A stretch of 64,000 bases of DNA from Candidatus Bathyarchaeota archaeon (GCA_963714275.1 CAVQNT010000001.1:64001-128000); one strand, 5' to 3'. Counted from the stretch's first letter, positions 9-61,192 are shown. Notes: generated from the sequence alone by a model not told the origin. A program made the numbers and translations.

Positions 9-1020
9 TTAGCCTCCAACTCTTATCCGTGGGTCGATTAGGGGGAGCAGCAAATCAACTATAAGATTGGCCGTGAGGACTGTAAAAATCGATAAAATGA
101 AGAAGCCCATTATCGAATTATAGTCTAACACAAAATAAGCCTCGGAAAACAGTCTGCCGACTCCCGGATAATTAAATATGGCCTCCACTATCACTGAGCC
201 GCTCATTATGAAACCTAAACCAATCCCTAATGCAGTGATCTGGGGAAGCAAAGAGTTTCGCATAGTATATGTGAAAAAGATTCTTGACTTCTTCAGTCCC
301 TTCAGCTTCTGCAAATTGCAGATAGTCTTCCCCCAGAATCGAAATAATCAGAGACCTCTGCGATATCACCCAGCCGAACATCGAAGTCAGAACGATTGAA
401 AGAGCAGGCAGAGTACCATGCTGTATCACAGAAATAATGAAGTCCAAATTGAAACCAGGCGTGACTCTTAGTGAGTAAGCCCCTGAAGTTGGAAACAGAT
501 TCAGAAAATATCCGAGAAAAAGTGCACCTAACACTGCAAAAATGTAAAATGGAATTTGTGACATCCCCATCGCGAGGACGCTCACGATTTTGTCAAACTT
601 GGTTCCTTGCTTCCATCCAACTAAGGCACCTAAAATGATCCCCATAATCCAAGCCAGCAGAGTTGATATCGAGAGAAGCCCAATGGTCCACGGCAGCCTC
701 CTTCTCAACAATTCCTGAACCGGCGTGGGGAAACCTATGAGAGATGGACCCAAATTTCCTTTCAGGAGTTCATTCAAAAAGGTCATGTACTGTTCCAGCA
801 GAGGTTTGTCGAGACCAAATGCTTCTCTATAAACATTTATTGCGTGCGCGTACGCTTGGCTTTGCGAACCATACTTTACGACGATTGACTTGAAAAAGAG
901 CACTAATGGGTCTCCGGGAAGCAGATGAAACATCCACCATACGAATGTTAGTGCGACCGCTAGAGTGATGATGTAGGTTGTGAACCGAACGATGACGTAT
1001 TTTATTACGGGGTTCATCAT
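9..1020 (-). CDS. dppB: Peptide/oligosaccharide ABC transporter permease (DppB/OppB type); apparent +1 frameshift near 304
   Basis: ORFs 172..1026 and 9..314 join into one permease: LPGDP, FGLDKPLLEQY, GNLGPS, RLPWT, AEAKGL (EAA loop), VEAIFNYPGVG, DPRIR. The break is at AGCT 304-307. Confidence 0.88.
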
Positions 1021-1184
1021 CCACAACTCTATTGTTTTCTTATTAATCTGTTTTTCTTAACTAATACTGGTTAATTGCAATATTTAACTCTATATACAAT
1101 TATTGGAAAAGACTTAAAAGTAAGCAAAAACAAATATGGAAATCGTAAATAGCTTAAGCTATGTAAAAGAAGGAAAATAGAAAA

Positions 1185-3323
1185 ATGAAAAATACAATAA
1201 TAGCTTCAGTACTGACTATCCTATTAGCATGTTCTATGCTCCTTACAACACCAACTAAACCAGTTAATGCAAGTATCGAAATACCCACACCGAGAGATGA
1301 AACGTTTGTCTTCATGGGATGGACCACTTTTGACTCTAACCAAAACCCGTTAGTTGCGCCATACGCCAACTACATGACTTTGACCCAGCAAGAGGGCGAG
1401 TTTCTATGGTACGACAGCTGGGCTACTGGCGAAAGACTCTACTGGCAAGCCACAGGATACGAATATTCGGATGACTATACAACCATGACAATTCACATCA
1501 GATCAGGAGTCGAATGGAGCGATGGCGAACCTTTCACTTCTGAAGATGTTAAGTTCACCTTGGATTTAATAAAGTCCAACCCGTTGCTCACAAACAACGA
1601 CTGGATCTCTGAATGGGTAGACTCTGTGTCAACACCCGACGATATGACCGTCGTCATCACTTTCACAGCGCCCAATCCAAGAGCTGACCTAAAGTTTGCA
1701 GCAGGAGGTTGGGGAGGCTTAATGATGGTACCAAAACACATATGGGAGAACGTTGAAAACCCGCAGCTTGCTGACATTTGGGGAAGAGGCGACAACGCAG
1801 TGCCACACGTTCTAACTGGACCATACCTAGTGTACCAGATCTCCCAAGAGGCTGGAATGGTGATACTGATAAGGAATGAAAACTACTGGGCAAAGGACGT
1901 AATGGGTGTCTTTCCTGAGCCAAAATACTTCATACACAGAAACGGGCAATCAAACGACATTGAATTCCAAGAAATCGTTAGTGGCGGTGCTTATGATGGA
2001 GGCTTCGCAACATGGATGCCAAAGGATCTACTGACTACAGCAATCGAAGTTGGAGAAAACGTGACATCTGTTGAATACACTGACGCAGGAGAATTCTACC
2101 TGTTCGTAAATTGCGCCAAATATCCATTAAACATGCCAGAGATCAGATGGGCAATTTCATATGCCTTTGAAAGAGAAAACTTCTGCGCTTCTAGTCCATG
2201 GTACCCAGGATTGGCACCAGCAATCTATCCTTGGAGCAACTGGAATACAACTTCAAAGTTCCAATATGCTGATGTCTTTGATACGTACAAACTTGAATAC
2301 AACTTAACCAGAGCTGCTGAAATTCTGGACAATCTAGGATTCGTCGACACAGACGCAGACAATATTCGAGAGACTCCAAATGGAACAAAACTTTCGTGGG
2401 AAATCATAGTCGGATATGATTCAGAATCATTTCTCCCCATGTTCCTGTCATTGGTCAACGACTTTGCTTCAATAGGCATCGAAATAACACTTACTGGTCA
2501 ACCATGGAACGTAATCACTGACAGAACTTCAGTAGGTGACTACGACCTTTGGTGGGATTCCCCGCACGCATCCTACGGCGTTGTTATTTACGGAGAGGTT
2601 CTGCCCCTCATTGAACAATACCAAAGCAAGTACTATACACCTATTGGCACACCACTGTCTGAATATGACAACACAAGAGCTGGAAGGTTCACTAACCCCG
2701 AAATAGACGATTTGGTTGAACAAATGCAAGCAATTTCGCCGGGTGACTCAGCCATGGATACCCTTTCGCACCGCGCCGTCGAACTGTTCATGGAACAGTT
2801 ACCTGCAATCCCAATAGCTGAGTATAAACGCGTTGATATCTTCAGCAACCGATACTGGACTGGATTCCCATCGCAAGAGAATTATTATGCGTACCCATCA
2901 GGAAGCAGCACAGAATACGAATCCATCATAAACCACATCGTATCAACTGGTTATACACCCGCAACCTACACGTTTGTTTGGATCACTGAAAATATTGCAG
3001 CCTTCACTGGCACTGACGGACAAACCTATGGACCGTTCAACGCTCAAGAATACACACGTGTCACCGAATCAGACGCGGAAAGGCTCATAACAGAAGGCAA
3101 GGCAACCTACCAGGTACCTTCTCAGGCTTTGACACAAATAATTTCGTCGCTCTCTGATCTTTCGAGCGATGTAAGCGACCTAAAGAGTCAACAGACACAA
3201 GTATCCAACACGTTGGCATCTCTCAACAGCCAAAACAACATGCTCATGATAGTCATGATCGCCGAAGCCATCGCCATGGTATTAATGGCTGTGGCAATTG
3301 TCATGCAAAGGCGAACCAAATAG
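1185..3323 (+). CDS. Family 5 ABC solute-binding protein with signal peptide, extra C-terminal domain, coiled coil and C-terminal TM anchor
   Basis: IRSGVEWSDGEPFTSEDVKFT signature, TGPY, RNENYW, IRWAISYA, LPAIP; hydrophobic N- and C-termini. Confidence 0.9.
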   Translation: MKNTIIASVLTILLACSMLLTTPTKPVNASIEIPTPRDETFVFMGWTTFDSNQNPLVAPYANYMTLTQQEGEFLWYDSWATGERLYWQATGYEYSDDYTTMTIHIRSGVEWSDGEPFTSEDVKFTLDLIKSNPLLTNNDWISEWVDSVSTPDDMTVVITFTAPNPRADLKFAAGGWGGLMMVPKHIWENVENPQLADIWGRGDNAVPHVLTGPYLVYQISQEAGMVILIRNENYWAKDVMGVFPEPKYFIHRNGQSNDIEFQEIVSGGAYDGGFATWMPKDLLTTAIEVGENVTSVEYTDAGEFYLFVNCAKYPLNMPEIRWAISYAFERENFCASSPWYPGLAPAIYPWSNWNTTSKFQYADVFDTYKLEYNLTRAAEILDNLGFVDTDADNIRETPNGTKLSWEIIVGYDSESFLPMFLSLVNDFASIGIEITLTGQPWNVITDRTSVGDYDLWWDSPHASYGVVIYGEVLPLIEQYQSKYYTPIGTPLSEYDNTRAGRFTNPEIDDLVEQMQAISPGDSAMDTLSHRAVELFMEQLPAIPIAEYKRVDIFSNRYWTGFPSQENYYAYPSGSSTEYESIINHIVSTGYTPATYTFVWITENIAAFTGTDGQTYGPFNAQEYTRVTESDAERLITEGKATYQVPSQALTQIISSLSDLSSDVSDLKSQQTQVSNTLASLNSQNNMLMIVMIAEAIAMVLMAVAIVMQRRTK

Positions 3324-3415
3324 CCTTATTTGGCATACTTTCCCCTTTCTATTTTTTAAGAAAAAATTACTTAACTTCATACAGTATCCTGCACACGCTT
3401 GACAATGAATTGGAA

Positions 3416-4721
3416 TTAGGCTTCTTTTATGCAGGCTTCTAGAATATTCAATGCGTCGTCAATTTGTACCTTAGTTATCACAAGGGGAGGCTGAATTCTC
3501 AACACGCAGCCTTCGCTTCCTCCAGAACCAATGAGCAACCCTTTTTCTCGGGTTAAGTCTCTGATTTTTTCAGTTTCTCTTTTCGCAGGCGTCTTTCGTA
3601 TTTTGTCTTCCACCAGCTCGATTCCTATCATCAGCCCTTTTCCCCTTACATCGCCTATTATGGGGAAATGACTTTTCAGTTCGTTCAGCCGCTTCATCAA
3701 ATATTCGCCTTTCTCTGCTGCTTGCTTCGGCAATTCATCGCGTAACATTACCTCTATATTTGCTAGCGCTGCTGCTGCAGAAACAGGGTTTCCCCCAAAA
3801 GTTGAAAGGTGGTCTCCTGGCTCAAAGGAGATCTCCTATGTCCGCCCTGGCTATCGTTGCGCCAAGTGGGAAACCGTTCGCTATTCCCTTTGCCATGCAC
3901 ATTATGTCTGGTTCCACATCGTAGTGTTCTATCGCGAAAAGTTTTCCTGTTCGACCAAACCCGCTTTGGACTTCGTCTGCAATGAAAAGTATGCCGTAAC
4001 TGTCAAGTATTTCCTTAACGATTTTGAAGTATTCTTTTGGTGGAGCAATTATTCCTCCTTCACCCATAACTGGCTCTGCGATGAAAGCTGCGACCCCCTT
4101 GCTCGTGCAGTATTCCACGACGTCTTTAATTGATCTCGCACATAGCATGTCGCATTCTGGATATTCTTTCTGAAATGCGCACCGGAAGCAATATGGAGGG
4201 TAAGCAAATGAAACGCCAGAAAGGTATGGTCCCATGTCGTACTTCTTTCGTCCTGCCTGTCCTGTGACGCTTAGTGTGCCAATAGACCTTCCGTGGAAGG
4301 AACGCATGAGAGCGATGAATTCGGGTTTCTTAGTGAATTTTCTGGCGAGCTTTAATCCGCATTCTATTGCTTCAGATCCACTGTTCGAAAAGAACGTTTT
4401 TTGCAGATTCCCCGGTGTTATTTCTGCGAGTTTTTCCGCTAACTCGACCATGACGGGAACATAATAAACGTAGCCGCAAACATGGACAAATTTTCTGGCT
4501 TGTTTAAAGGCAGCTTCCAGTATTTCAGGTTGCGAATGGCCTGAATTTGTGACTGATATGCCAGAAAAACAATCTATGTATTCTTTTCCGTTGATGTCCT
4601 TTATTATGGCGTCCTTTGCATCACTTATGACGACGGGTTCAATTTTTTTTACCATGCTCGTGATTAGGTACTTGTTGGCTTTCTTGATGGTTTCTTCGTC
4701 TTTCCGCAAACTTAACACCAC
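3416..4721 (-). CDS. Class III PLP-dependent aminotransferase (GabT/ArgD-like); frameshift near 3830
   Basis: FSNSGSEA, SFHGRS, IAEPVMGEGG, IADEVQSGFGRTG, MAKGIANGFP, then STFGGNP and VRGKGLMIGIE...LRIQPPL in the second frame. Confidence 0.9.
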
Positions 4722-4840
4722 AATCTTGTTCCATAACTATACATATAAAACTATATACTAACAATTAATACTGAATTAAATTAAATCATTTCCACATAAA
4801 CAAAATGGAACAATCAACAAACAAACCAAAAATAAAGATG

Positions 4841-5810
4841 TTAGTTGTATTTGAAGCAGGCGACTTCTCTGTTTTTCCCACTTTTGTTAATATGGGTTTT
4901 TTATCAGCGCAGATGTTGCAAACCTCTGGACATCTATTATAATAATTGCATGCATGCGATTTTATGCGGCTCTTTAAATCTGAACTTTTTAACTCTATTT
5001 TGTCTTTCCATCTATCCGTGGGATCTGGAATTGGAATTGAGTTGATCAAATTTTTCGTGTATGGGTGAAGTGGCTTAGAAACAATTTCGTCAATTGTGCC
5101 TTTCTCCACTATTGTCCCGTTGCAGAGGACAACCACGTCATCAGCAATATGGTGTGCCACATTAAAGTCGTGGGTCACGTATATGGAGGAGATTTCGTAT
5201 TTCTTTTTAAAGTCCAGAAGAATGTCCAGAAAAATCGCCCTTAAAGAAGCATCAATCATTGAGACTGGTTCGTCGGCAAGAAGAAGCCTAGGCTTTATTA
5301 ACAGTATCCGAGCCAACATCAGTCTTTGCCGTTCGCCCCCGCTTATTTGGTGCGGATACCGCCCGAGAACTCTTCAGGTCTAATTCCTACGTTTCTCAGT
5401 GATTCTTCAATTAAGGCTTCGCGGTCCATTCCGGGGGCTAAATCAAATTTTTTCATGACCAATTCAAGTACCCTGTCAACTCTATAAAATGGATTGTAGA
5501 TGCTGTAGGGGTCTTGAAATATGACTTGAACCTCCTTTCTGAAGGTTTTTCGGTCCTTTTTCAGTAGTTCCTGAACGTTTTTTCCTTTGTACAGTACCTC
5601 GCCTGACGTTGGCTTGATGAAACCAAGTATAGCCCTTAGTATCGTTGATTTGCCGCTGCCGCTTTCTCCCACAAGAGCCGTTATTTGGGGTTTTTCTCCA
5701 ACAATAGTGAAAGATGCATCATCAACCGCCTTAATTTGCCTTTTCGCCAACATACCAGCCGTGAAAACTTTTGTCAGCTGATTTACTTGCAGCAACGGAA
5801 TTGTACTCAT
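4841..5810 (-). CDS. dppF: Oligopeptide ABC transporter ATP-binding subunit (DppF/OppF); frameshifts near 5368 and 4875
   Basis: GESGSGKST Walker A, FQDPYS, LLADEPVS, HPYT, and Cys-rich tail ending REVACFKYN* in the corrected frame. Confidence 0.85.
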
Positions 5811-6767
5811 TTCAATTCACCAACCAAATGACAGGCTACAAAACGGTCCTTCCCAACATTCCTCAGCTTGGGAAGTTCGGTTTTGCATAAATCTTTAGCA
5901 AATGGGCACCTTGGATGGAATCTACATCCTTCTGGCCAGTTAAAGAGGCTTGGTGAGATTCCAGGTATGCCTTTGATTTTTTTCTTGGTTATTGATGGGA
6001 TGGCGTCTATCAACAGACTTTGTGTATGGATTCAATGGGTCTTTAAATACATCTATTACTGGTCCGATTTCCATTATTAAACCAGCATACATGATCGCTA
6101 GCCTGTCAACGAGTTCTGCGTGGACCGCCATGTCGTGTGCGACAAAAAGTATCGCTACATCGTTTTTGTCTCTAAGTTCAGCTATAATTTGTAAAATTCC
6201 TCTTTGAACCACAAGGTCGAGAGCCGTAACAGGCTCGTCAGCCACGATAAGATCAGGTTTAAGGGCAGTGGCAGCAGCAATAATTACTCTTTGCTTCATA
6301 CCTCCGCTTAATTCATGGGGGTACATTTCGCTTACATCTTTTGCAAGACCCACACTCTCAAGAAGATCTGGAATTTCTTTTTCAGCCTCTTTCTTAGATA
6401 TATCTGAATTTGTCGTGATCACATCAATAATTTGGTCCTTTACTTTCAAAATGGGATTCAAGGAGTTCATGGAGCCTTGCGGAATGTAAGACAACTTTTT
6501 CCATCTGATTTTGCGGAGCTCTTCCCCTTTCAGTTTTAAAAGGTCGATTCCGTCAAACGTGACCTTTCCCCCGGCTATGTAGCCTGGCGGTTTGATTATT
6601 CTGAGGACCCCCTCAACTAAGGTAGATTTTCCGCATCCTGACTCTCCCGCAATCCCGAAGACTTCTTTTTTTCTGACCTCGAACGTGACTCCGTCTACTG
6701 CTCTATATTCGCCTGTGACTCCTTTGTAGTACACTTTCAAGTTTTCGACTTCGAGGACATTGCTCAT
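5807..6767 (-). CDS. dppD: Oligopeptide ABC transporter ATP-binding subunit (DppD/OppD); frameshift near 6017
   Basis: GESGCGKST, YPHELSGGMKQR, VADEP, GCRFHPRCP..VACH. Confidence 0.88.
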
Positions 6768-6847
6768 GTTTTGGCTCCGCTTGTTTTTCTAGCGATTTTA
6801 ATATTTCTATGAAAGCGTATTAAAAATACTTCACGGTTTTTACCATA

Positions 6848-7723
6848 TTACCCTTTGAGGAAGCGTTCGACATTTTTGTGACAAATCTTTTCCATCACTT
6901 CTTCGGAATACCCAAGCTCTTCTCTTATTATTTTTCTGTCCATTTCAAATATACGTTTAGAACCTCCCCATTCGGGACTAAAGTCTGAAGCGTGAGAATC
7001 GGTCCCAAACATCATATGGTTCTCGGCGCCAAATACCAACGCTGTCTCAAAAGCTTTTTTTCGGAAAAACTTGGGGGTCCCAGGAGTCAAGTCGATGTAC
7101 ATCTGCATTTTGTCGATTTTTTCTGATTCGGGTGTTGTATAAAGTCTGTCTTTTATCCTTCCATAAACGGCTATGCACTCGTCAGTCCAAGGCCAGCTGA
7201 TGTGTGCCAAGGCGAACTTGATTCGGGGAAAGTTGAGCAAAGCTTCGTAAAATACTGGTTGACAAAATCTGGAAGAATCCTTGTTGTCGTCCAGAACTCC
7301 AGAGTGAAAGATGATTGGAACCTTCAGCTCCTGAACCTTCTCGTAGAAGGGGAAGAATTTTTGGTCACACGGATAATAGTGGTCGGGCATCAGCTTTATG
7401 CCTCTGCACTCGTACTTCGTCACTGCTTCTTCGAGGATGCGGACAGCGTTCTTCAGTCTAGGTTCCATCCATGCGAAGGCTACGATTTTATCTGGGGCTT
7501 CAGCTTGGAGTTTCGAGATGAACTTTATAACTTTTCTTTGTTCGGCATCGTTGACGCCCATGCTTGAGTACCCCATGAACCCCACTGGGTTTGGGTCTTC
7601 TCCTTTTGCCCATGGATAGGGCGAGAAAATGATCGCTTTGTCGACTCCTCCAGCTTCCATGGCTTTCAATACATCGTCAGCGGTTTCGGTTCCCATGCTA
7701 TGAACGTGACAATCTATCAGCAC
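6848..7723 (-). CDS. Amidohydrolase family 2 protein
   Basis: IDCHVH, GIKL, FHSG, LAH and MFGTD motifs. Confidence 0.85.
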   Translation of the reverse strand: MLIDCHVHSMGTETADDVLKAMEAGGVDKAIIFSPYPWAKGEDPNPVGFMGYSSMGVNDAEQRKVIKFISKLQAEAPDKIVAFAWMEPRLKNAVRILEEAVTKYECRGIKLMPDHYYPCDQKFFPFYEKVQELKVPIIFHSGVLDDNKDSSRFCQPVFYEALLNFPRIKFALAHISWPWTDECIAVYGRIKDRLYTTPESEKIDKMQMYIDLTPGTPKFFRKKAFETALVFGAENHMMFGTDSHASDFSPEWGGSKRIFEMDRKIIREELGYSEEVMEKICHKNVERFLKG

Positions 7724-8041
7724 ATTCTATACCTCCTTTATATCATCATATTAATGACTATATATTATTATATGAACGTAATACTGTCGACTTAAATAAA
7801 TTTTACCATCCCGCGCACGTTTATTCCATGAAATCCGCGTTTATGAACCATTCTTCTGAATCCAGAGTTAGCGTTAAAGGAAATTATGCGCCAGAATGTT
7901 TTTGGCTCAGTTGTGTTTTTAGTTTTTTCCATACGTTCATAACCTTTTTCTTTTAGTCGCGTTGTATATGTTAGTATCGCAGAGTATTTATATGGCAATT
8001 GCTGTATTTATCATTATATATAACTATGTGAGGGAAGCAGA

Positions 8042-8887
8042 ATGACAACGATTTATGGCAAGATACCGCAATCCATTTTTAAGCCAGAATATGGCGATTT
8101 AGTAAAAACTGGCACTGTCTATTCTTTATCGTTTGTTAATTCTTATCCGCCCAGAAACCCCAGTGGAATGACGCCTTTGATGCTGTCTCTTTCGCGGAGA
8201 CACAAGCTCCAAGACATCAACCTAGAGGGAAACACCAAATTCACTGAAGCTGACGAAACCATCGTCATGAGCGGGCATTCTACGACTCATTTGGATGCGC
8301 TGTGCCACATTGGCGAAATTAGGGAAGGAAAGACAAATCTCTACGGCGGCATTGATGCGGGCGAGACTGAGCATTACAGAGGATTCCGAAAGCTTGGGAT
8401 TGAAGGATGCCCTCCGATAATCACTCGGGGAGTCCTTCTGGACGTTCCTCTGTACAAAGACGTGAAGGTTTTGCCAGTAAGCTACTCAATATCAGCGAAG
8501 GACCTTCAGGGAACTTCTGACCTTGAAGGAGTGGAAGTCAAGCAGGGAGACTGCGTTCTTATCCGAACGGGATTCACGAAGATTTGGCGACCAGGCAATG
8601 AAGTCTTCTACGGAAGGTGCGCTGGACCTGAAATGGAGGGAGCCCAGTGGCTTATTGACCGTGGCATCATTGTTTCAGGCTCGGACACAATTAGCTACGA
8701 AAGAAATCCCAGCCCCACGCACCCGGTTCATAGAAAAATGATCAACAACGAAGGAATTCTGCTTATGAAGCTGCTGAATTTGGAAGAACTAGCCAAAGAT
8801 AAAGTGTACGAGTTCCTTTTCATCGCCTTGCCATTAAGAATCTTTGGGGCTACTGCGTCACCCGTTAACCCAATCGCCGTTTGTTAA
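8042..8887 (+). CDS. Cyclase family (kynurenine formamidase KynB-like) metal hydrolase
   Basis: HSTTHLDALCH, RGVLLD, LIRTG, PLRIFGATASPVNPIA. Confidence 0.85.
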   Translation: MTTIYGKIPQSIFKPEYGDLVKTGTVYSLSFVNSYPPRNPSGMTPLMLSLSRRHKLQDINLEGNTKFTEADETIVMSGHSTTHLDALCHIGEIREGKTNLYGGIDAGETEHYRGFRKLGIEGCPPIITRGVLLDVPLYKDVKVLPVSYSISAKDLQGTSDLEGVEVKQGDCVLIRTGFTKIWRPGNEVFYGRCAGPEMEGAQWLIDRGIIVSGSDTISYERNPSPTHPVHRKMINNEGILLMKLLNLEELAKDKVYEFLFIALPLRIFGATASPVNPIAVC

Positions 8888-8955
8888 ACAGGGCGCCTTA
8901 ATTACGGTGGTAAACGGTCGCATTCATAAAAGTAAATTTGAGAGGTCGGAACGGA

Positions 8956-9630: not shown

Positions 9631-9636
9631 GTCGAC

Positions 9637-10570: not shown

Positions 10571-10721
10571 CCAGTCAGCTAACATTTACAGCAACATCAA
10601 AAAAAGTAGCGTACGAATCCATGCAATCTAAGAAGCTTATATATTAAAATATAGGTTATGAATAGTGGAATATAACTGAATATTAAGGGCAATAAAACAT
10701 TCATGAAAGGATGGAGCAAAA

Positions 10722-18647: not shown

Positions 18648-19221
18648 ATGGATTTTAAAGGAAGTAGAACCGAGAAAAACCTGTTAGCAGCATTTGCAGG
18701 TGAATCACAGGCTAGAAACCGATACACTTTCTACGCCAGCGTAGCCAGGAAGGAAGGTTATGAACAGATATCCGCTATTTTCCAAGAGACAGCTGACAAT
18801 GAGAAAGAACATGCTCAACTATTCTTCAATCACCTCAAAGGAGGAACGGTTGAAATTAGGGCATCCTATCCTGCAGGCGATGTTGGATCAACAGCAAATA
18901 ACTTAAAAGCAGCAGCGGAAGGAGAGAAACTTGAATGGGGAACATTGTACCCTGACTTTGCCAAGGTGGCTGAAGAAGAAGGCTTCAGAGACATAGCTGA
19001 GAACTTTTCGAGGTGTTGCGAGCGTAGAGAGTTATCATGAGCGACGCTATAGAAAACTGTTAGAGAACGTTGAACAAGGTAAAGTCTTCACTAAAGAAAC
19101 GCCTATTAAATGGAAATGCAGAAATTGTGGTCATGTATACGATGGAAGTGAGGTACCTGAAACATGTCCAGTCTGTGCACACGCGAGAAGCTACTTTGAA
19201 GTTTGGTGCGAGAATTATTAA
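18648..19221 (+). CDS. rbr: Rubrerythrin; frameshift near 18999
   Basis: TEKNLLAAFAGESQARNRY, NEKEHA, EGEKLEW, then ESYHERRY and WKCRNCG..CPVCAH in the corrected frame. Confidence 0.92.
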
Positions 19222-20573: not shown

Positions 20574-21516
20574 ATGTATGACGTGATTATAATTGGAGCT
20601 GGGCCTGCTGGTTTGACTGCTGCAGCGAATACATCTCTCAGAGGCTTGAGAAGTGTCGTTATCGAAAAACATGATTTTCCAGGCGGTTTACCTGTGCTCC
20701 TATATCCTGACAAAATCATTAGGGATCATCCTGGGTTTCCTGTGGGTATCCTTGGAAAGGAATTGAGCAGAATGCTCTTTTTGCAAGCTAAGAATGCGGG
20801 TGCAGAGATTAAGTGCGGCGAAGAGGTGTTGAAAATTGCGAAAGAAGTGGACAATGTGCTTGAAGTGAAGACTACGCAAGATACCTACCAAGCAAGGAGA
20901 GTCATTTTATGCACAGGAATATTCAATCTTCCAAGGAAGTTAGAAATCCTGAAGGACACATCCTACCCCAATGTTCACTATGCTGTAAAAGGTCTTGAAA
21001 TATTCAAAAACAAGCGAATGGTTATTGTTGGAGGAGGAGACCATGCCTTTGACACCGCTGTTCAGTCTTATGGATGTTACAGATAAAATCACTATTCTAG
21101 TGAAGAACAGATACGCAAAGGCTAAGGAGAATACTGTTAAGATTGCTGAAAATTTAGGGATAAAAATTTTTTATGACACTGAGATCTCTAATGTCTTTAA
21201 AAATAAAGATGGAAAGATTGAAAAAATCGAAATCGTTAACCTTGAGACACATGAAAAGAAAACTATCGAGATGGATGAACTCTTCATATCTATAGGTTTT
21301 GAACCGATTAAGTTGTTCCTAGAAAGGAACGGGTTTGCCCTCCGAAAGGAAGGTTCATTGAAGGTTGACAGAAATCTTCAGACCAACATTAAAGGCGTGT
21401 TTGCAGCCGGCGACATTACTGGGGAGGTTAGACTTATAACAACAGCTTGTGCTGAGGGTATTGTTGCAGCAATCCACGCATTCGAAACGATCAAGAAACC
21501 TTATTGGCTACATTAA
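20574..21516 (+). CDS. TrxB-family flavoprotein, probably ferredoxin-NADP+ reductase type 2 (no CxxC); frameshift near 21066
   Basis: IIGAGPAG, LYPDKIIRDHPGFP, HYAV in place of CxxC, VGGGDHA, GVFAAGD. Confidence 0.82.
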
Positions 21517-26892: not shown

Positions 26893-29704
26893 GTGAATAA
26901 GGCTTTGCCCTACTGTCGTTTCTACGGAACTCGACTTGGATCTTTTGTTCCAGAGAAAGATGAGGAGAAGAAGGGAAGAGAGCGATTTCAAAGAAGAATC
27001 TTATTTCTATTTATTTTTTTCATAGCAGTTATTATCATAACGTTTTTTTCGTTGTATGTCTGGCTTCAATGGTCAATACTTGAGACGATGTATCTCCAGA
27101 AAGGAGGACTCGACTGGTTCAGCATAAACTATTATTACAATTATACCTTCATTACAGCTGCCATCTTGGCTTTGATAGTGGTGAATCCCCGTGTTGGCAG
27201 AAGCGATATTTACGGAATATGGGAAGCGATTTGGCGATTAAGTCAAGCTTGGTACAGAACCGAGAGGAAGCCTACTTTCTCTTTAAAAAATCGAAGACTC
27301 ACTTGGTTTACATGGCAAGTTGTAAAATGGGGCATCGCCTTCTTAGTCATCGTCTTGCTTAATGGTCTGCCATTTCTTGGAAAAGTTACTCCAGCTATTT
27401 ACATGGCGATAAAAAATGTTGGCAGCTCGGAACCTTGTATCTCGGGTTTTTCTTCTCCCAGTTTTTCCAGCATCAAGTACTGAGCTTATCTCTTTGATGC
27501 CGACTATGGAAGTTCAATATAACATTTTTTCCTTTTTCGCAACAGCTTTGCTTGCGGTTGTGGCTATTAGGTTGGTACTTAAGATTATCAGGCATTTCAT
27601 TCAAGAACAACAAAATGTTTGGATTCGCGATATTTTTTTAATCTTAACCTTGGTGATGGTCGCAATAATTATCGGCATGCCTTATTGGGCTATGGATGTC
27701 ACTACACCATTTGTTTTTATGATAAGTCTTCTTTTTCTCTCAGGATTTCTGGTTGCTACAGTTTATTTCCAGTTCATAGGTTTGGGACGGAACCTTTCTT
27801 TTGCTGAACGTAAAAGAACGCTCTTCTTAGGTCTTGTTATTGCATTAATTGTTGGGTTACTGATTAACGCTGGTTTTATAGCTTTTTACAGGCTTAACTG
27901 GAACAATAATTGGATCCAATACGAGTGGTTACCTCTAAATCAGAAACAAATTAATGTCACACGATGGGCAGCTGGAATTCAGGATTTAGAAAGGAAATCG
28001 ATTCAAGACTTACCTATGGGAAATTTGACTGAGACCTTGAGTCAGATAAGACAATGGGATCAGTCTGCTGCATACACGAGGATGATAAATCGTATAGGTG
28101 CCAACTGGATGACTCTTGCTGATTCTGATATAATATATGTCGCTGGACATGAATTTTGGGTGGCTCCAACAACTATTTCATATCCCAGTACAGATTGGAT
28201 AAGCGTTCACCTGATTTATACTCATACATCAAAAATTATCACAATCGATAGTCATACTGGCAATTATGTTAATGCTACAGATGTCTTTGGAATTGCGGAG
28301 GAACCCCATATATATTATGGTGAAGGCTTCGACGCATCTGTATATGTTAATGTTGAAGGCTTTAACGAGGTTGAAAACGTAACCTACTCAGGACCTCCGG
28401 ATTTTATTCTTTCAGGATGGCAAAGATCTTTATGGTTTGCGTCTCAAGGGCAATTCGGGTTCGCTTTCACGCCTCCACAAGAAAATATAAACATGCTGTA
28501 CAACCGCGACGTGTTTAAACGCGTGCAAGAAATTCTTATTCATGGATTAAAGGTGGATTCAGATGCTTATCCAGTAAGTGATGGAACGAATATTTACTAT
28601 GCAGTGCAAGTTTACATCGATTACCGTCTACTTTCAGGTTTTACACTAACAATTACCTTAGAAATCTTGCTGTAGTCTTGGTTAATGTGAAAGATGGTAC
28701 AATGCAAGGATACTTTGTGGGAAACCCAGATGGGTTCCTAGTTGACTTTTACAAGGAATATTACCCCTCTTGGAAACAGATAGATGACCCTAGTGCCAGT
28801 TGGCTTAGACCTCACTTCGTTATCCTGAGGAAGTTTTAGGTAAGCAAAACACTGCCGGACAGACTAGATGCTGATTTTATTTTTCATGTAAGTGACCCAT
28901 TTGTATGGAGGTCAGGAAACCAGTTCTATGAAAGACCTCCTCAAACCGAAGTCCTATATGTTCCAGTCTATGAACAAAGCAAGAGGTATTTTGTAGGTTT
29001 ACAGTTGGTAGAATATTTAGGATCAGAGGGGAAGAATTTAGTCGGCGTTTACCTTGCTTACGGTAGTGAAGACCGTGGTAAAATCATCCTTTATGAGGTT
29101 CCCAGCACGACTCAACTTTTGGGACCTACATCTGCACAGACATCACTGATAGCCAACCAAGATGTTAGGACAAGGTTGACTTTCTATGGTTATTACCAAA
29201 CTCCTCCCACAGCGCGACTTGGCAACATTCTTCTGTATCCCATTGGTGGAAAACTTTACTATTTCATTCCAGTGTATCTGGTTGGTCAGGTTATGTCGAC
29301 AATGCCTCAAATAGGCATCATTGACGCATCTTCTGGCAACGCAGTGGCTTTAGGTTCTAATGCTGAAGAAGCATACCGAAACCTTGTTGGAGTAATAACA
29401 GGAGAACAAAAATCAGCCAAAGAACGTTTGGCTAAAGTCTTTCAACTTTTCACCGGATACAACCTAGTTAATGTCACTGCTGTCAATCCAGATGTCGAAA
29501 TTCAAACTGGAAACTTATAGTTACATTGTGGAGAACCAGTGGAATCCAGTGGAAGCGGGAATAAACGACTTCACACAATCTTATGGGGCTAATGGCACAC
29601 GAATTCTGGCTTGGTATCCCGATGACCGGACAGTGAACCTGGGAGTTTTGATTAAAGAACAAGATTTCGTCTATCTCTATTATATTAGCATCAAATACAC
29701 GTAA
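26893..29704 (+). CDS. UPF0182 family integral membrane protein; several frameshifts
   Basis: Multi-TM N-half, TRWAAGI, IRQWD, HLIYTH, PHIYYGE, DAYPV, LRYPE, LGNILLYPI spread over ORFs 26893..27483, 27416..28675, 29005..29520 and 29471..29704. Confidence 0.78.
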
Positions 29705-30010
29705 TCTTATGAGCAGAAAACGGCAAATTAGTTTGCTATTCATTAACACTTGTCATGAAAGCAACTTCAAACTCACCACAAAAAGAATGGGACAGACATA
29801 GGAACAGACACTGACACAGGGAGAGACAAAGGAATTGGTGAAGTTGGGGATTAATTTTCAAACTTTCCCTCTCTTTACAAGTTTCTGAAGGGCAAAAAAG
29901 AAGGTTAAAAGCCTAAAATTTTTTTAATTCTTTCGTCCAGACATGTAATTCATAATTTTTTTTAAATAATTGAATTAGAAGGTACGTTGGAAGCAGAAAG
30001 TACTTAGACC

Positions 30011-30463: not shown

Positions 30464-30723
30464 AATTGAAAAGTTTTCTTTGTGCTGATATTTATATTAT
30501 TAAGCCTATTCAACTGATTCAATGATTACAACAAGTTCAACAAGATTGCTTCTTGAAAGTTATTTAAAATAGTCCCATTAGTTTGTAAACTATCATTCTA
30601 GGTCCTGAACCTAAAATGAATATATATTTTTTTGAAGTTAAATATCCTTTGATTATTCTTGTGCTCTTCTATATATGCTACTGAAATATGTTAATACAAA
30701 GGTGATTAAGAAGAGGAAAGATT

Positions 30724-31649: not shown

Positions 31650-32937
31650 ATGGAAAAAAGGTATTACACGCCTAGTGCCCTTAACCGAAAAATGCGGGAA
31701 TGGTTCCAAGATTCCAAGTTTGGCATGTTTATCCATTGGGGCGTCTACAGTGTGTTGGGTGATGGGGAATGGGTTATGCACAACAAAAAGATGACAGTGG
31801 AAGAATATGAAAAATTTCCCCTGTTATTTAACCCAATCGAATATGATCCGGCTGAGTGGGTACGAATCGCTAAGAATGCAGGGACGAGGTACATAACAAT
31901 TACGAGTAAACACCACGATGGTTTTGCAATGTATGATTCTAAAGTCAGCAATTATGATATTGCGGATCGCACACCATACAGGAAAGACGTGCTCAAGATG
32001 CTGGCTGATGAGTGTAAGAAACAAGACGTAAAGCTTATTCTTCTACTATTCGCATCTTGATTGGCATCATACTGACTATTACCCACGCGGAAGAACTGGG
32101 GAATATAGCAACCGACCAAACCGCGGAGACTTTAACAAATACCTCGACTACATGAATGCACAGATTGCTGAGTTATGTAGCGGAAATTACGGTGAGATTG
32201 GGGGAATATGGTTTGACGGTTGGTGGGACCAGCAGTTTAAGAAGTCTGGTGAACCAGTAAAGAAGACACAAGTTGACTGGCGTTTAGAGGAGACGTACGA
32301 TTTAATACACAAGTTACAGCCTCAAGCGCTGATTGGGAACAATCATCACGTTGCACCATTTGTTGGAGAGGATTTTCAGATGTTCGAGAAGGATCTGCCT
32401 GGGCATAATACAACTGGGTTTGGTGGTGATGCTGAAATAGGAGGTCTTCCGTTAGAAACGTGTGAAACCATAAACAATTCTTGGGGGTATAACAAAAACG
32501 ACAAGGATTTCAAAAGTACAGAAAAGTTAATCCAATATTTGGTAAGAGCTGCTGGATCCAATGCAAACTTTCTTCTAAATGTGGGCCCAATGCCCAATGG
32601 CATGATTCAGTCAGAGTTTGTTAAGCGTATTGATGGGATTGGACAATGGATGACTAAGAATGGAGATTCGATTTATGGCACGCGAGGAGGTCCCTTTGAA
32701 CCTACCGAAAACTATGTGACTACCTGCAAAGATGATAAAATTTATTTACATGTACTGGACTGGAAAGGCGAAAACCGTATAATGGTTCCTTCTGTTCTGA
32801 AAAAGAAAATCATGAAAGCTTGGAAGCTGGATGACGGAAAGGTTGTTCAGGTTCGGGAGCATCAGCAAGGTCTTATTGTTAGCCTTCCAAAAGGTAGACA
32901 AAACAACATCGACACCATTATTGTTCTTGAACATTAA
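31650..32937 (+). CDS. Alpha-L-fucosidase (GH29); frameshift near 32036
   Basis: KFGMFIHWG, TSKHHDGF, IWFDG, ETCETINNSWGY, LLNVGP. Confidence 0.92.
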
Positions 32938-34487: not shown

Positions 34488-34857
34488 TTGAGCGAGAAAA
34501 AGAAGATATTATACGTCGTAACGAGTGGTGTAGACACTCCTGAACGTACTTATGCTCCATTTATCCTTGCAACTACAGACTGTTGCAATGGGAATAGACG
34601 CCACAATATACTACCTAATAAAAGGAGTTACAGTTGTTAAGCAAGGAGAAGCGGAGAAAATTAAGCTGGGAAATTTTCCATCTTTAAAGCAGATAATGGA
34701 TCAAGCAATAAAGGCTGGAGTAAAAATTGAGGTCTGTGAACAGAGTTGCATGCTTCTTGGGTTTGAAAGAGGAGATTTCGTGAAAGGTGCTGAAATAGTA
34801 GGTGCAGCAACACTTAACGACCGAATTTTGGACGCGGATGCCGTCCTAAGTTTTTGA
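34488..34857 (+). CDS. DsrE/DsrF-like family protein; frameshift near 34579
   Basis: KKILYVVTSGVDTPERTYAPF, then GVKIEVCEQSC..VGAATL. Confidence 0.8.
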
Positions 34858-36589: not shown

Positions 36590-36645
36590 AAACACCTCTT
36601 TGAAATCTTTCTCAAGTGTATGTTGAATATTGGGGAGTTTAGCAT

Positions 36646-37567
36646 TTGGAGAACTTAAAAACCATCTCACTAGAAAGTAAAATCAGAGAGCTTAAGGAAC
36701 AGAAAAATGCGATTATCTTGGCTCACAATTACCAAATAGGTGAAGTCCAAGAAATAGTCTGACTATGTCGGTGATTCCCTTGGTTTAAGTCAAAATGCTG
36801 CTAAAAGCGATGCAGAAGTGATAGTGTTCTGCGGTGTACACTTCATGGCTGAGACAGACTTCTATCCTATGTCCAGACAAAATTGTGTTGATGCCAGAAA
36901 TAAGAGTCTGGATGTCCAATGGCTAACATGATCACGGCAGAAGCTCTCAGGGCTTTGAAGGATAAACATCCAGAAGCAACAGTAGTTTGCTACATTAACA
37001 CATCAGCAAAGGTTAAAGCAGAAAGTGACATCTGCTGCACCTCATCCAACGCGGTTAAGGTGGTAGAGTCACTATGTGCACCTGAAGTCATCTTCGTTCC
37101 AGATAAATATCTGGCACATTATGTTTCCACTAGAACTGAAAAGAAAATCATTCCTTGGAATGGTTTCTGCCCTACGCATGTAAAGATACTGCCAGAGCAC
37201 ATTCTAGAACAAAAAAGCTGACATCCAGAAGCAGAAGTAATTGTTCATCCAGAATGTATACCATCAGTTATTGCCTTGGCAGATGATGTGCTTTCAACTG
37301 GAGGAATGTGCAGTTATGCACGAGTATCAAAGGCCTCTGAAATAATTGTAGGTACAGAAGTCGGAATACTACACAAGTTGCGAAAGGAGAACCCAAATAA
37401 AAAATTTTATCCTGCTTCTGAGTCAGCAATTTGCCCAAATATGAAGTTAACAACATTAGAAAAAGTATTGTGGTCACTTCAAGACATGAAACATGAAATT
37501 ATTGTACCTCAAGAAACTCGACTTAAAGCTGAAAAAAACTGTTGAAAAAATGTTAGAAATTGGTTAG
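36646..37567 (+). CDS. nadA: Quinolinate synthase A; multiple frameshifts
   Basis: [52 protein letters not shown]. Confidence 0.9.
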
Positions 37568-51935: not shown

Positions 51936-52123
51936 GATGCATATTATCTCACTATGAGAACCAAGAATTAGCCTCTAGCTATCTATGAATCACCACTCTC
52001 AGTGAATATTAAAAGCTCTGCTTTATGGATAACCTGGCTGATAAAACGTTGAATTTTCGGTTTTAATAATAAATTCGGAAAATTTTAAGAATTAATCTGC
52101 AAAGCAACTCCGAAGCTTGTATC

Positions 52124-53093
52124 TTAACAGGACGGGTCAAGTAAGATTTTTATAGCCTCCTTTTGGCGCAACATCCTAAACGCTTTCTGCCATTCCGTCA
52201 TTGGCATCACATCACTGATGATTGCGTCCAGCTTCAAACTCTTTGTGCGAATCATATCTACAACCTCATCCAAATATTCCAAGTTGCCCCCCCATCTGCC
52301 TAGGATGTTAATGTTCTGCTGTGCCACTTTCTTCATATTCACATTCCATGGTCCTACGCCTATGCCAGTTACTGAAATGCGACCATTTCTAGCGATGCAT
52401 TCCACAGCTGCCTCGATTGCTGCAGCAGCGCCGGATGTCTCGAACCAGACTGAAGGCGCATCTTCATTCTTTATCTTTTTAATAGTCATTTGGCTGAATA
52501 GTAAGGCCTCATCAGACTCCCATCTCCAAAGCTTTAGGTAGGCGTACTTTCTCGTCACCCGGTCCACCTAAAACCGTGATGTGGGATGCACCTTCAAGCC
52601 TAGCAAAGTTAGTAACAAGTAGGCCAACTGGTCCCGGACCAGAAATTACGATACGTTCCCCTTTTTGTAGACGGATGATATCCCGCACCCATGATATAGG
52701 TCCAGTTACTATCTCAAACTGGGCAGCCTCTTTTAGTGTAATGCCCTTCGGCAATTTCCACATGGTATCTGCTGGCACCTGAAAATATTCCGCAAAAGCA
52801 CCATCTCTCTCCCTGCCAGGCCATGGAGATGGACCTCTATGGAAGGCGACAGCTTCACCCTCCTCAAATTGGGTCACATTCTTGCCAACTTTAGCTACTA
52901 CACCTGTATACTCATGACCTAAGATAAGTGGTGTTGGAATCTCATCCAATCCGCTCTCTCGGTGTAAGTCACTCCCACAGATTCCACAATAGGTTACCTT
53001 CAGAAGGATATCATCGTCCCCAATTTTTGGAATAGGGACATCTTGAATCTCAAGGTTACCTTTCCCTGGTGCTGTCTTAACCAAAGCGCGCAT
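52124..53093 (-). CDS. Zinc-binding (sorbitol/threonine DH-like) dehydrogenase lacking the structural-Zn lobe; frameshift near 52516
   Basis: CGICGSDLH, LGHE, DGAFAEY, SGPGPVG, FETSG, KILL. Confidence 0.82.
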
Positions 53094-56839: not shown

Positions 56840-57668
56840 ATGAAAATCGCCATATGCAACGAGCTCTTCAAAGGATGGTTATTGAAGGACATTTATGAGT
56901 ACGTTTCAAGGCTAGGTTACGAAGGAGTTGAGATAGCTCCTTTTACAATATCAAACGACGTAAGGATGATAGTGCATAAAGAACGAAAAGAAATCAGTGA
57001 TCTAGCTTCATCTTACAATCTTGAGATTGTTGGAATTCATTCGCTTTTGGTAGCTCCGAAAGGGCTACATCTGACTCATCCTGATGAAAGCATTAGGCAA
57101 CTGACAAATCAGTATCTCTGTGAACTTGTGAAGTTTACAAGTGAGATAGGCGGAAAATTTTTGGTTCTGGGATCCCCGAACCAGAGAAATGTTCTTAACG
57201 GATTGTCTTATCAGAATGCTTGGGAATATGCTAGGCAAATCCTATATGAGTGCTCTCGATTTGCAGAAAAATATGACGTTATAATTGCACTAGAGCCACT
57301 AACTAGACAATTTACTAACTTTATAAATACCGCGGAGGAAGCTATAAAACTCATAAGGGAAGTTTCGCACCCAAATCTTATGCTTAACCTGGACATCTTT
57401 AGCATGTTGGATGAAGGGAAACCTATACCGGATATAATAAGGGAAAGTAAGGAGTACCTTATTAATTTCCATGCAAACGATGACAATGGTCTGGGGCCTG
57501 GTTTTGGAAAGATAGATTATGGTCCAATTATTGAGGCACTGAAGGAGATAAAATATGATGGTTTTCTGTCAGTCGAAGTATTTGACGTTTCTCCAGGTCC
57601 AGAGAAAATAGTCATTGCTAGGCTTGAAAAACCTCAAAGAATTATTGCAAAAAACTACAATAGCCTAG
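56840..57668 (+). CDS. Sugar phosphate isomerase/epimerase (D-tagatose/psicose 3-epimerase-like); frameshift near 57621
   Basis: GYEGVEIAP, VLGSP, ALEPL, NFINT, LDIF, FHAND, SVEVF. Confidence 0.85.
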
Positions 57669-57794
57669 TTTTCTTTGTTTCCTATCCAATTAGTTGGCTA
57701 AACGAAAATGACAAATATAACCTAGCAATAGCATGGAATTACATTTGACTTCGTGTCGATGGCATAAGAACTAAGACTGGATTGTGATTTATTT

Positions 57795-60005: not shown

Positions 60006-60141
60006 TGAGTATAGACATTATTGAGAGTGAAGATTAGGTCGTCATTGTATAAACTTGATTTTAATTCTTAATAGAAGGTTAAAAAAAGTTTGACCTTGCC
60101 TAAAATCAATTTTTATTCTAACCTTTTGGGTAAAGTATCCA

Positions 60142-61192
60142 TTATGATACTTTTTCCCTTCGAGTTCTAATGATATCCAATAAGAAATCCCATCCTTCAA
60201 TAAACATACTGCGGAACAGATCCACTGGACCGAAATTTTTGAACTCTTCAACAGTAATCCCATCTTCTAAATATGCTTTACGAAAATCGGGAATCTTTTC
60301 TAATAGTTCATCAACAACATGCCTAGGTACAGGAGTGTCTATTCGAAAAACCACAGGAGGATCGGATATAATCAGTTTGTCAGCTGTTCCTTCCCAATTA
60401 ATAGTAATATGCATATCGGCACCAACATATTCAGTGAAATGATGAAGCCCACGTGCCCCCCCTCCTAGCATAACACCGGGATACCTGCGTTCTTTGAAGA
60501 TCCTATACTGCTTTTGGGCAACAATAAATCCAGCTTGCCAAAGTACATCAGGAGATATATCAATGTTATCACGTTTAATGACGTTTCTCAAATATTCATC
60601 AAAAATACCTGTTATATGCGTTAAGTAAAAAGGCGGATGCTTCCCACTTTCCTTTGAAACGCGTTGGTAGAGTTCACAAGTATAGACTGCCTGTGAGATT
60701 GCCATAACCTCAGTTGCTATAATCGGAACATCTTTAACAATAAGAGATTCAATAGTCTTCTAAGCCCTCTTTAGTTACCGGAATCTTTGCTATAGCATTT
60801 TTTCCTAGTTTGCAATATCGTAATGACTCTGTAACAATACGGTTAGGATCGCCGTCGCCATATGGAGACCCCTGTATGGAAACAAATCCTTGCTTGCCTG
60901 GGTTCTTTTTATATAAAGGAAGAAATTTATCCATTATTCGTTTAACAAGACTTTTCTTGGATGAGATCTGCAACTTCATCATCATCTTCGACTCTTTTGA
61001 TTACTTCATCCACAACCCTCAAAACATAATCATGCTCTGTCTTAGGCACGATTTTACTTACATATGTTGGGTTAGTCGTGCAACTAATTGCACCTGCAGC
61101 TGATAGCTTTTATTTGTCTCTTTTAAAGTTGGATTATTAACCCAAAACCTAGTGGGTGTCTGCTCGGTGACACGGTGAAAATATCCTTCCAT
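60142..61192 (-). CDS. Transaldolase family protein; multiple frameshifts
   Basis: PTRFWVNNP, CTTNPTY, VSIQG, AKIPVT, IATE, LGGGARG. Confidence 0.78.

Follow-up and report, generated by a model that had tools for sequence, protein, structure and literature searches.

Why should gene after gene in one archaeal genome be broken by a single extra or missing base, and why at the same four-letter word? The question arises in the window (the whole stretch of 64,000 nucleotides analysed here), which is part of a 2.64 Mb genome in 10 contigs (G000; 91% complete) from a Bathyarchaeia archaeon, the representative genome of its species. The reading that we favour, with a probability of roughly 70%, is that this is a long-read assembly in which AGCT carries a modified cytosine on each strand (m4C, set by one of the genome's beta-class N4/N6 methylases, being the likeliest form), and in which the base-caller misreads the modified base. 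Platform, modification, chemistry and enzyme are all things that we infer, the platform from two hints: the small number of contigs (10) that make up 2.64 Mb, and the profile of the errors.

Placing the errors required references. A same-genus genome (G002) served as DNA reference across positions 1-13972 of the window, at 88-91% nucleotide identity; the others were a second same-genus genome (G004), an internal paralog, tblastn and metagenome contigs from four runs belonging to four studies. These runs come from samples other than the source, with no library type recorded for them. Counts from the contig comparison apply to the listed rows, which are 12 of 50 indel rows and 40 of 844 substitution rows; 27 of the 40 were used, namely those in which no run that covers the position agrees with the window. 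For the 40-60 kb part, metagenome contigs were scanned with the alcohol dehydrogenase that is intact at 49844-50845. Of the 12 loci that matched, the top one had 88% amino acid identity on a 3.8-kb contig, and none was close or long enough to act as a reference.

The sequence-only reading had proposed that single-base indels cluster on AGCT, and this is borne out: 17 of 27 independently placed indel or frame-switch events lie in or beside AGCT, where chance would put about 1 to 3. AGCT with one nucleotide on either side, together with AGWCT, makes up 3.4% of the window (P ~1e-18, or 3e-11 even at a rate of 10%). Nine of the 12 listed indel rows recur in at least three of the four runs, and eight of those nine restore or abut AGCT, whilst the 27 substitution rows form 23 groups, four of which restore AGCT. 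Five of the 27 placed events are without AGCT (4873, 30585, 35602, 41090 and 45735). GATC or CCGG as a second error motif (41090 lies in GTGATCCC, 35602 in CCTCCGGG) found no support, GATC being unenriched at junctions genome-wide (10/218 versus 5.1% in controls). The error sites, all entered with strand ".", are as follows.

303..307, strand., extra C directly 5' of AGCT; ABC permease gene with Pfam BPD_transp_1 split; G002 alignment; ORF 294 to 348 aa once it is removed
3829..3834 (3833), strand., AGATCT where the relative has AGCT, one extra base; splits a class-III aminotransferase gene, with Pfam positions 10-278 and 280-403 on separate fragments; G002 alignment and tblastn
5369..5371, strand., ACT where the relative has AGCT, G lost; splits an ABC ATPase gene; G002 alignment and tblastn; corrected ORF 195 to 343 aa
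6015..6019 (6017), strand., AGACT where the relative has AGCT, extra A; G002 alignment and tblastn; ORF 282 to 326 aa
11089..11093 (11091), strand., AGTCT where the relative has AGCT, extra T; G002 alignment and tblastn
18995..19007, strand., AGCTGA; the frame changes 1-8 nt past AGCT; rubrerythrin gene; tblastn junction 19000-19007; Pfam
21064..21068, strand., AGTCT where G002 and G004 have AGCT, extra T at 21066; splits a pyridine-nucleotide disulphide oxidoreductase gene; ORF 180 to 323 aa
28645..28647, strand., ACT; G inserted by 4/4 runs, giving AGCT; metagenome contigs
28814..28816, strand., ACT; G inserted by 3/4 runs, giving AGCT; metagenome contigs
28861..28865, strand., AGACT; A at 28863 absent in 4/4 runs (X1: one of two contigs); metagenome contigs; jointly with the edits at 28645 and 28814, ORF 420 to 702 aa
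29042..29043, strand., AGTC where 4/4 runs have AGCT (swap); metagenome contigs
29567..29568, strand., GACT where 4/4 runs have AGCT (swap, mirror image of 29042); metagenome contigs
29731..29732, strand., AGT; C inserted by 3/3 covering runs, giving AGCT; metagenome contigs
30513..30513, strand., AACT where 4/4 runs have AGCT (G called as A); metagenome contigs
32032..32042, strand., AGCTT with a frame switch directly behind AGCT; splits an alpha-L-fucosidase gene; Pfam and tblastn
34577..34581, strand., AGACT, longer by one base than in the internal paralog; DsrE-like gene; paralog and tblastn
34746..34746, strand., AGTT where 4/4 runs have AGCT (C called as T); metagenome contigs
36756..36760, strand., AGTCT; T at 36758 absent in 3/3 covering runs; nadA; contigs and paralog
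36856..36860, strand., AGACT; A at 36858 absent in 3/3 covering runs; nadA; contigs and paralog
36905..36909, strand., AGTCT; T at 36907 absent in 3/3 covering runs; nadA; contigs and paralog
37216..37221, strand., AGCTGA; G at 37220 absent in 4/4 runs; in-frame TGA between two same-frame nadA fragments
37527..37532, strand., AGCTGA; G at 37531 is an extra base relative to the internal paralog; end of nadA
52514..52518, strand., AGACT within a 53-nt frame-change interval, consistent with the change though not pinned to it; alcohol dehydrogenase gene
60754..60758, strand., AGTCT; takes up most of the 8 nt in which the frame can change; transaldolase-like gene in two fragments

The internal paralog is without the extra base at 34577, 36758, 36856, 36907 and 37531.

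Twenty-four such sites had been named before any comparison was made, and the letters given for them are present at all 24 coordinates. Verdicts on 21 (53347, 47911 and 33057 being left out) upheld 16 as indel or error sites: nine of the 11 AGWCT sites, eight by an outside reference (34577 by the internal paralog plus tblastn) and the ninth, 60754, by its 8-nt permitted interval; five of the eight with an extra base next to AGCT (304, 18995, 32032, 37216 and 37527); and two of the three at which AGCT was thought to have lost a base (28646 and 28814, where an inserted G restores it). For 18995 and 32032, tblastn puts the frame switch 1-2 nt from the site. Three more (52514, 27424 and 45180) are consistent with the claim and 9651 is ambiguous, the relative there reading AGCC. 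At 37216 there is indeed an error beside AGCT, but the defect is the in-frame TGA of AGCTGA and brings no net frameshift. The supposed AG(G)CT frameshift at 57620 had to be given up, as the proteins of two relatives align in one frame across the site to the last residue. The relatives available for 52514 and 57620 share only 26-46% identity, and 52514 is resolved no more than coarsely.

Are these genes broken in the organism, or only in the assembly? Some 470 nt of the nadA gene hold three indels plus an in-frame stop, a fifth indel lies near its end, and deleting the three extra bases yields a single ORF (36643-37216). Real mutations, whether mass pseudogenisation or an AGCT mutational hot spot in this strain, might produce such a pattern, and it speaks for them that the compared contigs stem from other populations. 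Yet nadA is intact in contigs whose DNA is 95-99% identical to that flanking it here, housekeeping genes are affected, and mutation of a single tetranucleotide would have to account for some 40% of all extra-base junctions in the genome; we consider this explanation very improbable. Independent contigs and relatives read plain AGCT at these places, as expected of the consensus errors that had been proposed, and the genes are therefore intact in vivo; in line with this, reference-backed edits alone lengthened the longest ORF in all eight gene regions tried. Judged by these comparisons, most broken genes in the window are sequencing mistakes on AGCT.

The k-mer enrichment check suggested earlier was run across the whole 2.64 Mb genome as an unbiased test at 595 extra-base ORF junctions. 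AGCT emerged as the top 4-mer (277 occurrences versus 166 expected) and AGTCT and AGACT as the top two 5-mers (97 versus 33 and 116 versus 48, respectively). Junction intervals contained AGCT or AGWCT in 89/218, 155/236 and 112/141 cases, against 15%, 35% and 51% of matched controls. Twelve unrelated control motifs were flat at the junctions, and a thirteenth, AGSCT, was weakly enriched, in narrow intervals only; in all, 15 control motifs lack a signal like that of AGCT. All 16 combinations of flanking bases around AGCT were enriched, by 1.5 to 4.4 times: the motif is bare AGCT, with no flank requirement.

Extra-base junctions number 225 per Mb in this genome, compared with 125-135 in two clean relatives, at whose junctions no AGCT signal is seen. 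The excess amounts to about 250, in agreement with a surplus of about 243 for AGCT/AGWCT. Missing-base junctions, at 132 per Mb against 125-138 in the relatives, are at baseline. The two control assemblies, represented by 400 kb each, were G080 (without a copy of the orphan methylase described below) and G011 (with one); both have baseline junction density and no frameshift excess, making them negative controls of the method that are uninformative on modification.

Such a signal might also arise on unmodified DNA, if the base-caller or the polisher is biased by the sequence context of AGCT. Homopolymers, the classic case of such a bias, are, however, unenriched at the junctions, 24 tracts of (AGCT)3-5 have been assembled intact, the errors are strand-symmetric and centred on the C/G pair, and we know of no report of AGCT as a problem word. 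What gives the idea some weight is that AGCT is undepleted in the genome (observed/expected 0.95), so that nothing hints at a matching restriction enzyme, and that indel-type errors would be unusual as a footprint of methylation (PMC10687267). On balance we think it unlikely.

Modification of the cytosine could be the single cause of all the error types, if the C of AGCT on either strand appears T-like to a base-caller untrained on the modified base. Reading C as TC would give AGTCT or AGACT; dropping the C, AGT or ACT; reading C as T, AGTT or AACT; reading CT as TC, AGTC or GACT; and an extra base behind the motif, AGCTG or CAGCT. Every one of these forms occurs along with its reverse complement. 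As the error would recur in most reads, consensus polishing would retain it. We estimate that about 1 in 10 AGCT sites is wrong across the window, and about one third within 27300-37700.

In nanopore assemblies, methylated cytosine is described as leaving C called as T and G called as A (PMC11610603). Among the listed rows there are two clean cases of it at AGCT (30513 and 34746) plus the two swaps. Measured against G002, central transitions showed no excess at AGCT (13/74 versus 137/929 at other NGCN sites, P = 0.5); the 4-mer asymmetry in this comparison mostly reflects the differing GC content of the two genomes.

The mark might instead be something other than simple methylation: a bulkier group on the cytosine, say, or a change to the guanine or the backbone at the central GC step, which would disturb the signal more strongly and so produce indels. 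The errors are indeed indel-rich, with about 14 of them beside 28 intact AGCT sites in 27300-37700, and no methylase has been tied to AGCT. C read as T, on the other hand, suits plain methylcytosine, a search for DndB (phosphorothioation) gave no match, and m4C at AGCT is widespread among related archaea (PMC10609329). We hold a non-methyl mark to be improbable, more so than context bias; if it were borne out, Bathyarchaeia would have a new DNA modification. The search for DndE was also without a match, but it was silent in every control genome too.

Which enzyme might place the mark, should it be a methyl group? The gene searches bear out the earlier statement that no DNA methylase gene lies inside the window. 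Elsewhere in the genome, the search proposed for an m4C or m5C methyltransferase turned up beta-class N4/N6 genes but no C5 gene: a six-frame search of this 91%-complete genome gave 0 PF00145 matches (the control search gave matches in 9/14 named genomes), which tells against the AluI-type C5 methylase originally envisaged. PF01555 matches fall at five places, one of them a THUMP-domain RNA methylase, and the N4/N6-type DNA methylase candidates number four, C2:292310-293428 being one. Three PF01555 candidates have motif IV before motif I:

C2:149557-150435, PF01555 candidate, motif IV before motif I
C5:127525-128244, PF01555 candidate, motif IV before motif I; DPPF
C6:356263-357406, PF01555 candidate, broken, motif IV before motif I

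A single candidate bears SPPY, the motif usual for m4C methylases; it adjoins an HNH nuclease and has close copies (69-75% identity) in only 3/80 other genomes of the class. C5:127525-128244 is an orphan that sits between housekeeping genes with no nuclease neighbour. Copies at 67-74% identity are found in 5/5 sampled genomes of the family, a level reached in 2/75 genomes outside it. Among solved structures, adenine methylases are nearest to it, and by language-model features it is nearest to Nitrososphaerota type II methylase clusters, which is a lead only. The solved-structure relatives of the candidates are generic N4/N6 enzymes (2zie, CcrM, DpnA) from which no specificity can be read, and the figures in the supplement table of PMC10609329 are cluster numbers rather than lengths or sequences, to which no candidate can be matched. 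Since no C5 methylase gene was found and N4/N6 candidates are present, m4C is the better guess over AluI-type m5C for a methyl mark. An AluI-like restriction partner is unlikely because AGCT is not avoided.

A species-representative genome thus contains many falsely split genes, with 27 events placed in this window alone, and gene calls, pseudogene counts and completeness figures will be biased as a result. Most of the surplus frameshifts would disappear if AGCT sites were corrected with the motif in mind. The error footprint also reveals, at no extra cost, what is probably an epigenetic motif of an uncultured lineage. Should the modification be confirmed, Bathyarchaeia would join Nitrososphaerota and Methanomicrobiales as lineages marking AGCT (PMC10609329). 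Confirmation would also strengthen the case for a shared epigenetic role of AGCT in archaea, and it would come with a short list of candidate enzymes.

How does this compare with known systems? In the AluI system, the C5-cytosine methylase M.AluI has AGCT as its target. The present case shares with it that target and, presumably, cytosine as the modified base; here, by contrast, no PF00145 gene was found and AGCT is not avoided. The resemblance to modification-mediated Oxford Nanopore errors, as described in PMC10687267, PMC11610603 and PMC11610573, lies in recurrent errors at one short lineage-specific motif, in C-to-T and G-to-A calls (two clean cases here among the listed rows), in a motif recoverable from the error sites alone and in absence from independent data, which there were short reads and here are other-sample contigs and relatives. 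The published errors are dominated by mismatches (1533-5670 in PMC10687267, with indels not the cause), whereas here single-base insertions in mid-motif dominate the listed errors and break reading frames. What we describe is an artefact of a known kind on a known archaeal motif, in a lineage for which the literature searched holds no report of it: no paper there combines "Bathyarchae" with "AGCT", and the supplement of PMC10609329 has 0 occurrences of Bathyarchaeia in its survey. Unlike the SPPY m4C enzymes, the candidate at C5:127525-128244 has DPPF and adenine-methylase solved relatives, and its AGCT specificity is putative. The closest parallels are the orphan AGCT m4C methylases that PMC10609329 describes as lineage-persistent in Nitrososphaerota (HG11, HG19) and Methanomicrobiales (HG16), with which this genome has in common an archaeal host, the palindrome AGCT and beta-class N4/N6 methylases, the orphan at C5:127525-128244 among them.

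The source genome (2.64 Mb in 10 contigs, ~43% G+C) is 91% complete, has a contamination score of 3.7% and exceeds all its relatives in size. The window is C1:64001-128000, and parts of it are also found in wetland, sediment and peat metagenomes. Its 143 open frames, searched with Pfam, gave ordinary metabolic genes, many of them broken into neighbouring pieces that each match the next portion of a single family profile. Examples are a class-III aminotransferase (profile positions 10-278 and 280-403), a pyridine-nucleotide oxidoreductase (1-159 and 184-291), an alpha-L-fucosidase (20-159 and 157-345) and NadA (2-27, 77-180 and 183-288). A sequence-only reading had attributed such breaks to single-base indels clustered on AGCT, and the letters it gave are present at all 24 coordinates that it listed.

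To place the indels we used four kinds of reference: public-run contigs, the same-genus genome G002, an internal duplicate and relatives' proteins (by tblastn). Contigs from four metagenome runs, from four studies, were aligned to 27300-37700. Among the 12 indel rows listed of 50, nine were shared by three or more runs; eight of these nine restore or abut AGCT, and the ninth (30585) lies away from it. Three rows confined to run X3 resemble strain differences. From the 40 substitution rows listed of 844, we used the 27 at which all runs covering the position disagree with the window; these form 23 groups, four of which restore AGCT. G002 is syntenic with window positions 1-13972 at 88-91% nucleotide identity.

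Indels, frame switches and substitutions placed in the window, with the reference in brackets (AGWCT, AGACT or AGTCT)
28645, 28814: G put in, ACT to AGCT (public-run contigs)
29731: C put in, AGT to AGCT (public-run contigs)
28863, 36758, 36858, 36907: middle A or T left out, AGWCT to AGCT (public-run contigs)
37220: G left out of AGCTGA (public-run contigs)
29042-3: AGTC in window, AGCT in runs (substitution rows)
29567-8: GACT in window, AGCT in runs (substitution rows)
30513: AACT in window, AGCT in runs (substitution rows)
34746: AGTT in window, AGCT in runs (substitution rows)
303: extra C before AGCT in window, AGCT in G002 (G002 alignment)
3833: AGATCT in window, AGCT in G002 (G002 alignment)
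5369: G lost in window, AGCT in G002 (G002 alignment)
6017, 11091: AGWCT in window, AGCT in G002 (G002 alignment)
4873: event in a T run, no AGCT (G002 alignment)
14739: event between two AGCTs (G002 alignment)
21066: AGCT read by both G002 and G004 (same-genus relatives)
19000-19007, 32035-42, 34582-92: frame switch at or beside AGCT (tblastn)
35602, 41088-95, 45735: frame switch without AGCT (tblastn)
45178-84: frame switch, relation to AGCT ambiguous (tblastn)
58887: frame switch 6 nt from an AGCT (tblastn)

The window's extra base is also absent from the internal duplicate on contig C4 (84-85% identical) at 34577, 36758, 36856, 36907 and 37531. That duplicate is a tusA/dsrE/cysteine desulfurase/nifU/nadA block (window 34125-37566; C4:82691-86132, 84-85% identical), explained by either an ancient duplication or the presence of a second, related population in the bin. 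A TauE/SafE sulfite-exporter gene region at 51123-51937 likewise has a second copy, 94% identical, at C2:347416-348230. Position 9654 is ambiguous because G002 reads AGCC there. One listed site, 57620, is not a frameshift, since the proteins of the two best relatives, G010 and G003, align in one frame from ~56834 through the site to their last residue at 57655-57694.

Of 27 placed indel or frame-switch events, 17 lie in or directly beside AGCT, three are near it or only consistent with it (14739, 52514, 58887), two are ambiguous (9654, 45180) and five are without it (4873, 30585, 35602, 41090, 45735). As AGCT ±1 nt plus AGWCT takes up 3.4% of the window, the clustering has P ~8e-19 (3e-11 even at a 10% rate), and the earlier estimate of 25-30 of ~40 indels at AGCT was of the right size. 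Non-AGCT frame breaks fall in a T run (4873), in CCTCCGGG (35602), in GTGATCCC (41088-41095) and in a GGG run (45735), and do not suffice to define a second motif.

Reference-backed edits alone lengthened the longest frame in all eight gene regions tried, taking an oxidoreductase ORF from 180 to 323 aa, an ABC ATPase from 195 to 343, a large membrane protein from 420 to 702 and a permease from 294 to 348. In nadA, three deletions yield a single frame from 36643 to 37216, and the next fragment continues in the same frame beyond a single TGA inside AGCTGA. The defect listed at 37216 is thus real but is an in-frame stop rather than a net shift, and there must be a compensating change nearby (none is among the 12 indel and 40 substitution rows listed). 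Since independent contigs and relatives read AGCT and the edits lengthen every region tried, the frameshifts are artefacts, as had been proposed. A probable toxin-antitoxin pair at 48598-49252 comprises a MazE-like antitoxin gene followed by a PIN-domain gene that lacks the first 29 profile positions, perhaps also through assembly error.

The genome-wide k-mer count suggested with the original proposal was made by a motif-free test, in which adjacent same-strand stop-to-stop frames overlapping by ≤200 nt, coding-like on both sides, gave 943 high-confidence junctions, and k-mers in the overlap were ranked against flanking coding sequence. At the 595 junctions mended by removal of one base, AGCT was the top 4-mer (277 vs 166 expected, P 2.5e-15) and AGTCT (97 vs 33.1) and AGACT (116 vs 47.9) the top 5-mers, followed by those containing AGCT. 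The top words at the 348 other-kind junctions, GGAGG, ATGA and GTGA, mark real gene overlaps. AGCT/AGWCT occurred in 41% of narrow intervals (15% of matched displaced controls), 66% of medium ones (35%) and 79% of wide ones (51%); at these intervals 12 unrelated control motifs showed no enrichment, nor did homopolymers at the genome's junctions, and AGSCT was weakly enriched in narrow intervals only (25/218 vs 5.9%). AGWCT was enriched in all 16 flank combinations, and the word is therefore bare AGCT. Two clean relatives show no AGCT signal at junctions and have 125-135 extra-base and 125-138 other-kind junctions per Mb, against 225 and 132 here (junction counts over genome length); the excess is thus confined to extra-base junctions, and its size (~250) about equals the AGCT/AGWCT surplus (roughly 243).

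The errors come in reverse-complement pairs that involve the central C or the G paired with it (AGTCT/AGACT, AGT/ACT, AGTT/AACT, AGTC/GACT), the exception being AGCTG/CAGCT, also such a pair, where the base is added outside the motif. Most likely a single mode accounts for the whole set, the cytosine of AGCT giving a T-like call on either strand; in 27300-37700 there are ~14 errors against 28 intact AGCT. From these sequence patterns, a putative DNA modification of AGCT is well motivated. The sequence-only reading had the right motif, but the AluI-type cytosine methylation that it proposed is probably wrong in its chemistry, no C5 methylase (PF00145) having been found in this 91%-complete genome. 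PF01555 matches at five places, one a THUMP-domain RNA methylase, and the genome also encodes one D12-class adenine methylase and type I methylase genes; all lie outside the window, which, as had been stated, holds no DNA methyltransferase gene.

Candidate methylases
C2:149557-150435: SPPY motif; gene overlaps an HNH nuclease gene
C5:127525-128244: DPPF motif; orphan flanked by transaldolase and CDC48 genes
C2:292310-293428: not beta-class; follows the D12 methylase
C6:356263-357406: DPPF motif; next to type I specificity genes and itself interrupted in the assembly

The first belongs to an HNH/SPPY-type N4/N6 methylase locus (C2:148900-150435). This methylase has close copies (69-75%) in three of 80 other class genomes. 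Copies 67-92% identical come from MAGs whose labels span many bacterial and archaeal phyla (80 loci retained of 215), and those at 70-75% identity are likewise spread over many such phyla; with its nuclease it resembles a restriction-modification pair that has been transferred very widely. The third is patchy (19 of 81 genomes, this one counted). We favour the contig C5 orphan as the candidate AGCT enzyme. It occurs in all five sampled family genomes and, outside the family, in two of 75 at 73-74% identity; its nearest Atlas clusters are Nitrososphaerota type II methylases (a lead only), and among solved structures adenine methylases are closest to it.

Word usage suggests restriction pressure on GGCC (strongly avoided, observed/expected 0.34), GATC (0.67) and CCGG (0.65; both moderately avoided), and an orphan mark on AGCT, which is not avoided (0.95). 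(AGCT)n tracts of 3-5 units number 24 across the genome, where base composition predicts 0.6, and, from their flanks read by eye, appear mostly intergenic; short tandem tracts lie in the window at 11361-11368, 14489-14496 and 51104-51111. Their length differs among relatives (two units in the window at 11369, three in G002; three in run X2, four in X4). Contigs of other populations skip 29700-29904, 29765-30160, 30663-31595, 33023-34148 and 33040-34038, and four of six such contigs carry instead short inserts with (AGCT)n or GCTAGCTAG. A whole carbon-nitrogen hydrolase gene (30706-31485) lies within the 933-nt skipped stretch. Gene content varies between strains at these points, and the AGCT repeat marks them.

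The value of these results is twofold: a faulty reference genome is flagged, and a testable epigenetic lead is provided. In nanopore assemblies, methylated positions are described as giving C-to-T and G-to-A calls (PMC11610603). Errors bound to motifs have likewise been ascribed to untrained modifications; these are mainly mismatches (PMC10687267), whereas the AGCT set here includes single-base insertions and losses. A sediment methylation paper that mentions Bathyarchaeia worked with CCGG and GATC enzymes only (PMC13340088). Orphan AGCT m4C methylases are reported in one survey as persistent in Nitrososphaerota and Methanomicrobiales, Bathyarchaeia being absent from its supplement (PMC10609329); the searched literature yielded no paper with both 'Bathyarchae' and 'AGCT'. 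In marine Thaumarchaeota MAGs, 82-91% of AGCT is reported to be modified (PMC8919816). What we describe, in a lineage without a report in the searched literature, is a known kind of artefact at a known archaeal motif.
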